This document shows positions 2,830-31,949 of a stretch of 64,000 bases of DNA, piece after piece. Below the pieces are notes generated by a model. The model was not told the origin of the DNA. It did not search any database and saw nothing but the letters and a program-made list of their open reading frames with translations. Origin of the DNA: Lama guanicoe (taxonomy: Eukaryota); NCBI GenBank assembly GCA_013239625.1, contig MU053652.1, forward strand, positions 3,833,902-3,897,901, read 5' to 3'. The translations under genes were made by a program, and so were the position numbers. Numbering within the stretch: position 1 is the stretch's first letter; the number at the start of each line of letters is the position of its first letter.

Positions 2830-3031
2830 TGGATAAACAAGATTATACTGTATAGCACAGGGAAATATATACAAGATCTTGGGGTAGCTCACAGTGAAGT
2901 GAAATGTGACAATGAATATATGTATGTTTATATATAACTGAAAAATTGTGCTCTACACTGGAATTTGACACATTGTAAAATGACTATAACTCAAAAAAAG
3001 TTGAAACAAACAAAAACAAACAAAAAAAAAT
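2830..3031 (+). mobile_element. 5'-truncated lineage-specific L1 3' end with A-rich tail
   Basis: L1 3'UTR-type sequence (..gtatagcacaggg..ttgacacattgtaaaatgactataactc) with tail. Perfect TSD aaaaagtttctaata at 2815-2829 and 3032-3046. Confidence 0.85.
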
Positions 3032-21696: not shown

Positions 21697-21804
21697 ATGT
21701 ACGTTCATGTATAACTGAAAAATTGTGCTCTACACTAGAATTTGACACAACATTGTAAAAGGACTATAACTCAATGAAAAAAATGTTAAAAAAAATAAAA
21801 AAAT
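21697..21804 (+). mobile_element. Short lineage L1 3' end; the monomeric form of the unit multimerised at 30355-30676
   Basis: ataactgaaaaattgtgctctacactagaatttgacacaacattgtaaaaggactataactcaatg..aatgttaaaaaaa. Degenerate TSD aaaaagtgtacatttg / aagaagtatacacttg. Confidence 0.8.
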
Positions 21805-30255: not shown

Positions 30256-30354
30256 GTAATATCATACATCTGTTAATCATATTTCTAGTTTCATTTATTT
30301 GATTGTGTAAGAGTACTTTAAAGTCTAATTCTGTCGTCAAGAAATTTAACTTGA

Positions 30355-30676
30355 ATAAAATAAAATAATTTGACACAACATTGTAAAATGATTATAAATC
30401 AATAAAAAATGTAAAAAAATAAAATAAAATAAAATAATTTGACACAACATTGTAAAATGATTATAAATCAATAAAAAATGTTAAAAAAATAAATAAAATA
30501 AAATTTGACACAACATTGTAAAATGATTATAAATCAATAAAAAATGTTAAAAAAATAAAATAATTTGACAACATTGTAAAATGATTATAAATCAATAAAA
30601 AATGTTAAAAAAAATAAAATAATTTGACACAACATTGTAAAATGATTATAAATCAATAAAAAATGTTAAAAAAAAT
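30355..30676 (+). mobile_element. Retroposed pentamer of an L1 3'-terminal ~55-nt unit
   Basis: Five copies of aatttgacacaacattgtaaaatgattataaatcaataaaaaatgttaaaaaaa starting at 30367, 30436, 30502, 30562 and 30621. Perfect TSD aagaaatttaacttga at 30339-30354 and 30677-30692. Confidence 0.9.
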
Positions 30677-30779
30677 AAGAAATTTAACTTGATATCCTTG
30701 ATAAGGTATATTCTAACTCTGTCATCCAAACCCTAAAGCATTTGAGGAGTAGCAACAATATGGATAAGGAAGCCCTCAC

Positions 30780-30894
30780 CTAAGCAAACGTGTTTGCTGT
30801 CTCTTCCGGATAGATGGATTAGACTCAAACACATGAGGCCGTTTCCGTTTCTTTCCTGTTGCCACAGCAGCAGCAGCAGCCATTCCCACAGGAC
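30780..30894 (-). CDS. NRF1: NRF1 exon 3, 115 nt: (G)PVGMAAAAAVATGKKRKRPHVFESNPSIRKRQQTRLL(R), containing the basic nuclear localisation region
   Basis: Acceptor tttcag|GTCCTG, donor TAG|gtgagg. Phase 1 in and phase 2 out fit the neighbouring exons. Read by hand, since the ORF track shows another frame. Confidence 0.97.
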
Positions 30895-31949
30895 CTGAAA
30901 TAATAACATATTCGCTGAGATTAGGCAGAGCCGGTTAACTGTATAAGGCAGAAAAAAATTAAAGGTACAAAAAAGCAGCATTTATTTCCTAATAAATACA
31001 GAATGTTCCTGATAGCGTCAATATTATTTCACTACTGTTCAACATGGATCATATTTTAATTTACCATTAAAACTTACAATGAATCTTTTTAAAAAGTAAA
31101 TGACTTACACCTCCCCACCACATACCAGCTTGAATTTTATATAATGTTGATTTTTGTTTTGTTTTGTTTTGCCAGCATACCCATACTGTTAAGGAAGTAT
31201 TCTCAGAAGTGCTAGATGAAACTGTAGCATTGAAAGGAAGAGCTTTCCAAAACAAAAATGTTAACAGATTTCAAATTTCATTACCATCCCTGTGCCCCTC
31301 TTTCCATTACTCCAAGACACTGCCAAGTTAAGAAAGTCAGAGATAATCACTCATACTTGGAATTCCAATGACACCACCATCCCCTGTAAGAGGAATACCT
31401 GGAAGACTACTATTTTAATTGGAAAAAAATTTCTTATATATCTGAGAATTGTGCCCAAAATGGAGTGTTGACTACAAAGTCAAGTTGATAAAAGCATTCT
31501 GTGAGGAAAGAAAAGAAAGCTGTTTCACTCTAAGGGAAAAATGTTAATAAAAGTTGGTCTAGTTTGCCCTGAAACTAATGATTAAAATAGAGGGTAGGCC
31601 CTCAGGAATGATTAGTCTTTGACTGATGGAATCTCAACGTTTCAAGGGTATCCTTTTTTTTTTTAAATTCATATTTATCCTTATTTGTGAACCCTGTAAA
31701 AGGTCTAAATAAAAATTAGCTTTAATTGCTCACATTTATACTGGCATATATGTTCTATAAGTGACTCAATTAAAATAAGTCTCCCTAAATACCTAGACGT
31801 GCCCCTCTACATGTTATTTAGTAGTATACTCAGTATGACTTAAACAAACTTCTCTAAGGAGCCCCAAAGCAAGTAAAAAAATAAATTAATGCCTTTCCAA
31901 CATAAACAGCTAGTAGAGGAAAAAATCTTACTAATGCATTTTTCCACCA

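Follow-up and report, generated by a model that had tools for sequence, protein, structure and literature searches.

A tandem array of five L1 3' ends within a single target site duplication in an intron of an NRF1-like gene of Lama guanicoe

The window, by which we mean the whole 64,000-nucleotide stretch of Lama guanicoe DNA that was analyzed, carries on its minus strand (30780-30934) a coding exon whose product matched the Pfam family Nrf1_DNA-bind (PF10491, E 3.8e-20, profile positions 1-39). This NRF1-like exon ends at 30780 with a GT donor and includes an alanine run encoded by a CAG/CTG repeat at 30865-30880. An array of L1 tails lies antisense in an intron of the same gene, 87 bp beyond the exon, and no effect on the gene was evident. 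Read directly from the sequence, the array (30339-30692) is a 322-bp insert (30355-30676) flanked by a perfect 16-bp target site duplication (TSD), and a direct-repeat search returned this 16-nt pair at 100% identity, 338 nt apart. Inside the TSD are a 14-nt leader, five L1 3'-end units of 43-45 nt, linkers of the form A7-8T(AAAAT)n and an A8T tail. The parts of the array, defined by alignment and by splitting of the insert, are given below with two single L1 fragments of the window that served for comparison.

2830 to 3031, plus strand: L1 3' fragment of an older subfamily (gaCtataaCtc) with its own TSD, aaaaagtttctaata; comparison monomer, aligned with the units
21697 to 21804, plus strand: L1 3' fragment of the older subfamily with its own TSD; comparison monomer, aligned with the units
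30339 to 30354, plus strand: left TSD, AAGAAATTTAACTTGA, matching 30677-30692 at 16 of 16 positions
30355 to 30368, plus strand: leader, ATAAAATAAAATAA, 14 nt, part of a linker enclosed by the TSD; its sequence is that of the final 14 nt of linker 1
30369 to 30412, plus strand: unit 1, 44 nt of L1 3' end running from TTTGACAC through AATGT, with one T missing (alignment and insert split)
30413 to 30437, plus strand: linker 1, A7 T (A4T)3 AA, 25 nt (insert split)
30438 to 30482, plus strand: unit 2, 45 nt (alignment and insert split)
30483 to 30503, plus strand: linker 2, A7 T A3 T A4 T A4, 21 nt (insert split)
30504 to 30548, plus strand: unit 3, 45 nt (alignment and insert split)
30549 to 30563, plus strand: linker 3, A7 T A4 T AA, 15 nt (insert split)
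30564 to 30606, plus strand: unit 4, 43 nt, without CA in GACACAAC (alignment and insert split)
30607 to 30622, plus strand: linker 4, A8 T A4 T AA, 16 nt (insert split)
30623 to 30667, plus strand: unit 5, 45 nt (alignment and insert split)
30668 to 30676, plus strand: terminal tail, AAAAAAAAT (A8 T), 9 nt, adjoining the right TSD (insert split)
30677 to 30692, plus strand: right TSD, matching the left copy at 16 of 16 positions

The five units conform to TTTGAC(AC)AACATTGTAAAATGATTATAAATCAATAAAAAATGT(T) and start at 30369, 30438, 30504, 30564 and 30623, which gives periods of 69, 66, 60 and 59. Tandem Repeats Finder reported the array as 5.0 copies of period 69 (score 468), and a 32-mer from the unit had five exact matches in the window and none in 100 shuffles. 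The units differ from one another by small indels alone, with no substitutions, and the lengths of the A-runs that follow them along the array are 7, 7, 7, 8 and 8. Linker 2 joins its unit in a register unlike that of the other linkers, and the 9-nt terminal tail is the shortest tail of the array. The TSD sequence is absent from all four linkers, which consist of tail sequence only. Directly 3' of the right TSD stands TATCC, which indicates that the leader belongs to the insert and is not target DNA. The locus thus holds at least two RNA-derived segments in the same orientation within one TSD and with no internal TSD, the arrangement by which chimeric retrocopies are recognized. A sequence-only reading of the window had described a 322-bp insert within one perfect 16-bp TSD, five units with variable linkers at the periods given above, and an insert that begins inside a linker; all of this was borne out, with units of 43-45 nt after the insert was split, and the structure of the array is confirmed in the assembled sequence.

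The assembly itself is one possible source of such a structure, in that the assembler could have inflated an array of fewer real units or created the small indels. With its 55,231 contigs and runs of N the genome is fragmented, and the differences between units are of the homopolymer and short-repeat indel kind. Since the linkers differ by 5-10 nt, they provide unique paths through the array, and the flanks and TSDs are clean. We consider an artifact of this type very improbable.

What the array repeats is the very 3' end of an L1 element, and long copies continue upstream of the unit as ...CTGAACACTGGAATTTGACACAAC... In full-length relatives an ORF ends 219 nt upstream of the 32-mer core, and that ORF matched the C-terminus of human LINE-1 ORF2p (PDB 8uw3, residues 1066-1274 of 1275, E 1.9e-89). 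Pfam searches with pieces of the L1 ORF returned no family for either of the two proteins submitted, and no long sense ORF was present at locus L004. At the window locus the 16-of-16 match between the TSD copies, whose length falls in the usual range of about 7-20 bp, the AATGTT A8 T directly before the right TSD and the L1 identity of the inserted sequence were those expected of target-primed reverse transcription. The bottom-strand target, ...AAATTTCTT/GACGAC, is pyrimidine-rich and then purine, and differs from the canonical L1 endonuclease target on that strand, TTTT/AA. The earlier assignment of the insert to L1-type retro-insertion is therefore supported by the TSD, by the A-rich 3' end that adjoins it and by the L1 tail sequence, and one L1 target-primed insertion is the best explanation for the insert.

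Both monomers reported in the window were confirmed; each is flanked by a TSD of its own, and they align with the array units. The units carry changes (gaTtataaAtc) that these monomers lack and that had been regarded as special to the multimer. That view was not supported, because an exact 32-mer with these changes occurred 6,907 times in the 2.05-Gb genome, almost always as an ordinary L1 3' end and mostly at the end of a long copy; tails of an abundant L1 subfamily normally have this form. Among the first 100 listed places of the 32-mer, no two lay within 1.9 kb of each other, which indicates that tandem copies are rare. An unbiased sample of 90 copies was drawn from the first 30 loci (L001-L030) and from 60 of 70 further listed places (L088-L147). 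Removal of duplicated segments left 86 independent copies, and one further copy, at an N gap, was dropped from the truncated set. Mini-insertions truncated in the last 75 nt accounted for 15 of the 86 independent copies (about 17%). Among the sampled loci, L005 is a very short L1 tail copy with a 5' inversion, and L015 has on its plus strand (2-841) a 280-aa open frame upstream of the L1 tail, which by eye resembles a seven-transmembrane protein of the olfactory-receptor type (motif MAYDRYVAICHPL).

The linkers of the array resemble a tail pattern that is found elsewhere in the genome. The sequence A7T(AAAAT)2 followed the same L1 end at 25 other places, and the 20 loci that were inspected represented 19 independent places. 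These copies were mostly long and had unrelated flanks, and their tails stopped after varying numbers of AAAAT. In the sample, (AAAAT)n tails were present in at least 5 of the 86 copies. Long copies with unrelated flanks and variable AAAAT counts show that the source RNA of the subfamily encodes the patterned tail and serves as its template. Because independent primings land at variable points of this tail, the linkers of the array look like ordinary primings on one patterned RNA tail.

The interpretation that had been placed on the array was of a multimeric non-autonomous retroelement mobilized in trans, such that a genomic array of L1 tails was transcribed and the window locus is a 5'-truncated copy of this multimeric master. 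The start of the insert inside a linker and the membership of all units in the same subfamily agree with such an origin. However, the linker-to-unit junction 32-mer AAATAATTTGACACAACATTGTAAAATGATTA (AAATAATTTGACAC...) had three matches in the genome, all of them at the window locus. When any six A/T bases were allowed before the unit, 19 matches were obtained, four at the window locus and 15 elsewhere. Most of those elsewhere were lone mini-insertions, about 50 nt long and each flanked by its own TSD, and three of these were copies of one duplicated segment; the 15 also included an older L1 tail followed by the unit (L048) and a U6/L1 chimera (L047, described below). The sole single-TSD dimer among the 15 was L038, whose (AAAT)n linker is unlike those of the window array, and none of the 15 was a copy of the array. 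A BLAST search with the whole array, with scores for 40 of 904 candidates, gave no match of more than two units elsewhere, and the best other matches, of at most two units, had different linkers, boundaries or subfamilies. As this search missed the five-unit array at L084 (described below), its tally of multimers is a lower bound. The older subfamily had ten matches at the same 5' boundary, at eight loci comprising six monomers with their own TSDs and two duplications that include flanking sequence, and no single-TSD multimer was found among these eight.

Thus no source array, no 5' head or promoter and no second copy of the multimer were found among the pattern matches or the 40 of 904 BLAST candidates scored; the multimer was not seen at several TSD-flanked loci, and the supposedly diagnostic changes are those of 6,907 ordinary L1 tails. 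The sequence-only reading had itself named a multimer at one locus only as an outcome that would tell against it, and the junction search gave this outcome. The alternative that it tied to such an outcome, local slippage after insertion of a monomer, is likewise not shown. A multimeric master in this assembly is close to refuted, and we regard descent of the window array from one as quite improbable. The window array is not a new mobile element or retroelement family. One part of the proposal, that joining took place before insertion, is supported to this extent: the leader is the 3' end of a linker located inside the TSD, which neither duplication nor nesting can make, and at least one tail-to-unit joint therefore predates integration. 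The other four joints could be later DNA-level events.

Other tandem arrangements of the same L1 tail provide a measure of what DNA-level events produce in this genome. In a first class (class A), the repeat period includes the TSD or more of the flank, and these loci are duplications after insertion: L084 (5 x 64 bp), L051 (2 x 148 bp), L056 (2 x 144 bp), L149 (2 x 204 bp) and L170 (2 x 239 bp). L084 (1440-1780 of the locus; G000:C55231, about 42415140-42415480) is, like the window array, a five-unit array of the L1 tail unit. Its period is exactly 64 bp, with 99% matches and 0% indels, and every period holds A8 and the TSD GTTCTAGTCTA. The inclusion of the TSD in the period indicates that L084 originated after insertion, by exchange between two TSD copies.

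Based on this precedent, the window array could have begun as a smaller insertion (leader, one or two units and tail) that then expanded between the (AAAAT)n of the leader and that of the tail, by slippage in replication or unequal exchange of sister chromatids, its unequal linkers being the result of exchanges in different registers and of microsatellite slippage. A perfect array of the same mini-insertion at L084, the two-copy duplications with flanks at L051, L056, L149 and L170, and the direct-repeat model of Haber and Louis that is cited for tandem repeats derived from transposable elements (TEs) (PMC3389668) are all in line with this origin. Within the window array, the leader and tail share AAAATAA, linker 4 has exactly the form that one exchange of this type would yield, and the A-runs are blocked along the array, as stepwise duplication predicts. 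The expansion would still need a pre-integration joint for the leader, and as the terminal tail is only A8T, about 7 nt of homology would be available. Further separate events would be needed for linker 1, which has three AAAAT, and for linker 2, whose register is odd, and all of them would have to have occurred without any substitution in the 322 bp or in the TSDs. Moreover, the proven DNA-level array at L084 is perfectly regular and the window array is not. On balance we view expansion at the DNA level as less likely than not, although it is the alternative that we take most seriously.

A second class (class B) has one outer TSD, A-rich linkers only and a common 5' boundary within the locus, and is made up of the window array with five units and of L038, L055 and L062 with two each. 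The boundary of class B varies between loci, that of L062 being TACACTG and not TTTGAC. Nested insertions with a visible second TSD form a third class (class N; L054 and L080), and L052/53 and L048 are unequal pairs that could not be placed clearly in any of the three classes. For the class B dimers, nested insertion into a tail is conceivable, as an A-rich second TSD would be hidden. For the window array, the corresponding explanation is that five mini-L1s inserted serially and independently, each into the A-rich tail of the previous one, and L054 and L080 demonstrate that nested pairs occur. The five units nevertheless start at one nucleotide, when any given position accounts for about 1 of 86 independent copies in the sample. 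The leader cannot arise by nesting, and nesting would accumulate tails and second TSDs at the 3' end, where the array in fact has its shortest tail. Serial nested insertion is excluded by this anatomy (common start, leader and short terminal tail), and of all the explanations weighed here it retains the least probability, almost none.

The 5' boundary of the array units recurs outside the array. Mini-insertions with their own TSDs that start at (A)(A)TTTGACAC were found at L034-36, L040-46, L168, L169 and L174-177, and the boundary recurs in monomer mini-insertions of both subfamilies. Among the 15 sampled copies truncated in the last 75 nt, six fell in a 10-nt interval at this boundary (binomial p = 0.01, with the interval chosen post hoc). 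RNA folding gave no support for a structural stop signal: the unit with its linkers folded at -5 kcal/mol (z = -0.77, not significant), and the 146-nt L1 end had z = 0.09.

The same boundary was used at L047 (1460-1660 of the locus, minus strand; G000:C8817, about 10740460-10740660), where U6 snRNA is fused to a 50-nt L1 tail unit. The U6 is full length (Rfam RF00026, 117 bits, model positions 1-105 of 105), and the joint, TTTTT/TGACAC, leads from U6 to TTGACAC... inside a 17-bp TSD, AAAATTATACCTATTAG. L047 is a classic U6/L1 chimera that uses the L1 boundary of the array. At L175 (G000:C9058, about 5508785) and L046 (G000:C8810, about 8331310), T-rich letters (AGAGTCTTTTTTT and TTTT, respectively) precede the unit inside the TSD, and these may be remnants of other RNAs with oligo-U ends that were joined at the array boundary. 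A separate mini-insertion on the minus strand at L082 (G000:C3175, about 7858542), with the TSD AAAAAAGTCACGCCTGA, has AATGTT before the TSD in the target. This target therefore already resembled the L1 3' end (AATGTTAAAAAA), and the insertion may have been primed by extended complementarity.

The shared boundary of the U6/L1 chimera is consistent with a further origin for the array, in which RNA pieces from the L1 3' end, short and with their 5' end at AAUUUGAC, were joined head-to-tail by ligation, the route through RtcB that has been proposed for U6/L1 chimeras, and the joined RNA was inserted once and 5'-truncated in a linker. The product would be identical to that of template jumping, the mechanism considered next. 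Of the two accepted routes to such chimeras, RNA ligation is one (Moldovan 2019, cited in PMC11838501). With AA counted as part of the unit, a final U is shared by the leader, the terminal tail and three of the four linkers (linker 2 ends in UAA), which would fit cut RNA ends. Such ligation would require, several times over, that a single fragment has both a defined 5'-OH and a ligatable 3' end, and nothing seen here points to fragments of this kind. The terminal A8U would also be a poor primer-binding end for target-primed reverse transcription. We judge concatenation at the RNA level to be improbable.

The explanation that we tentatively prefer, at a little short of even probability and from what is seen at this one locus, is that the L1 reverse transcriptase, in the course of one insertion, made five successive copies of the final 45 nt or so of a young L1 RNA. 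The nicked target (bottom strand ...TTTCTT/GA) would prime cDNA synthesis inside the encoded A8U(AAAAU)n tail of the RNA, and the enzyme would proceed to the 5' terminus of this RNA, or to a fixed stop, at G/AAUUUGAC. The end of the cDNA (...AAATT-3') could then pair again, over 2-3 nt (AA or AAU), with the (AAAAU)n tail, either of the same RNA or of an identical one, and copying would repeat, with this cycle taking place five or six times. The last jump would end after 14 nt of tail, represented by the leader, when the cDNA joined the upstream target end. A linker would correspond to the tail from the L1 body up to wherever the cDNA landed, and linker lengths of 25, 21, 15 and 16 nt would be accounted for in this way. 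At the joints, overlaps of 2-3 nt (AA or AAU) are present between the donor, GGAAUUUGAC, and the acceptor, (AAAAU)n.

Several observations point toward jumping. The four linkers are unequal in length and register, and linker 2 differs from linker 1 by 4 nt and not by a 5-nt step. The contrast between the regular 64-bp array at L084, which is post-insertional, and the irregular window array points the same way, as do the class B dimers, whose units share a boundary within each locus as re-copying of one short RNA would give. The known template-jumping activity of ORF2p and R2 also agrees (PMC10830420, PMC11371274), and the leader inside the TSD, the encoded tail with its variable priming points and the recurrent 5' boundary speak for this reading as well. 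Purified ORF2p makes template-jumping concatemers in vitro, and the jumps reported there go from the 5' end of one template to the 3' end of another (PMC10830420). Against the mechanism, and unlike those in-vitro jumps, the landings here would fall on very short tails, either inside them or at their end. A fixed RNA 5' end or stop would be required for the enzyme to leave its template five or six times at one and the same nucleotide. The indels of the units (A7 versus A8, loss of CA, loss of T, A3 versus A4) are also many errors for one pass over an RNA, and could alternatively be post-insertion slippage or sequencing errors. In addition, L084 proves that DNA-level amplification to five identical copies of a mini-insertion occurs in this genome, and the AAAATAA common to the leader and the tails could be a substrate for unequal exchange.

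The anatomy of the array, the ordinary tail of an abundant subfamily as its unit, the encoding of the patterned tail by that subfamily's RNA and the confinement of its junctions to one locus are direct observations. The broader proposal, that the window array together with L038, L055 and L062 is a natural germline footprint of serial, telomerase-style jumping by ORF2p on an RNA with its 5' end at G/AAUUUGAC, we put forward more tentatively than the account of the window array itself, as a possibility that is somewhat below even.

Among known systems, the U6/L1 and other chimeric L1 retrocopies are, like the window array, composed of RNA-derived segments in one orientation within one TSD, and their 3' segment is likewise a short 5'-truncated L1 end with an A-rich tail. 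Such chimeras arise by template switching during target-primed reverse transcription or by prior ligation of RNAs. The window array differs from them in that the partner is the L1 tail itself, joined four times and with a partial fifth joint. The published chimeras that we found were hetero-chimeras, having a single joint or two (PMC2104539). No description of homomultimeric L1-tail concatemers in one TSD was found when open-access text was searched by words. Dimeric and multimeric SINEs are also built of head-to-tail modules with A-rich linkers and are mobilized by L1, and they constitute families of many copies with a promoter; in this general comparison, the window array differs as a single locus without a head.

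The concatemers made by ORF2p and R2 in vitro, and the 'tandem template copying' described in cells, consist of copies of successive templates joined head to tail, the order that the units of the window array also show (PMC10830420, PMC11371274). As described in these sources they are test-tube products or come from engineered transgenes, whereas the window array would be a natural germline footprint with landings in an (AAAAU)n tail. Minisatellites derived from TEs, as treated by Ahmed and Liang (2012; PMC3389668) with the model of Haber and Louis, share with the window locus a tandem array of a partial TE. In that model, as given there, each period holds one copy of a direct repeat. A TSD in every period is what we found at L084; in the window array the TSD is present at the two ends only, linker lengths vary and unit 1 is preceded by a piece of linker. 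According to Ahmed and Liang, the tandem repetition of partial TEs may have its trigger in the course of retrotransposition, through mechanisms that are unknown (PMC3389668).

Based on these comparisons, we regard the window array as a variant of the chimeric and tandem insertion products of L1, a mechanistic curiosity that was likely assembled during one reverse transcription. If expansion at the DNA level is the correct reading, a mini-L1 seeded what is here an ordinary young minisatellite. If instead the array was made by serial jumps, arrays of this type would be in-vivo records of an ORF2p activity that has so far been demonstrated with purified protein. They would also point to a site at which L1 RNA preferentially breaks or has its 5' end, and would account for the birth of some TE-derived minisatellites as multimers from the outset. 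Should the class B loci indeed be germline footprints of this process, both the jumping of ORF2p and the recurrent RNA end that feeds U6/L1 chimeras would become countable in genomes.
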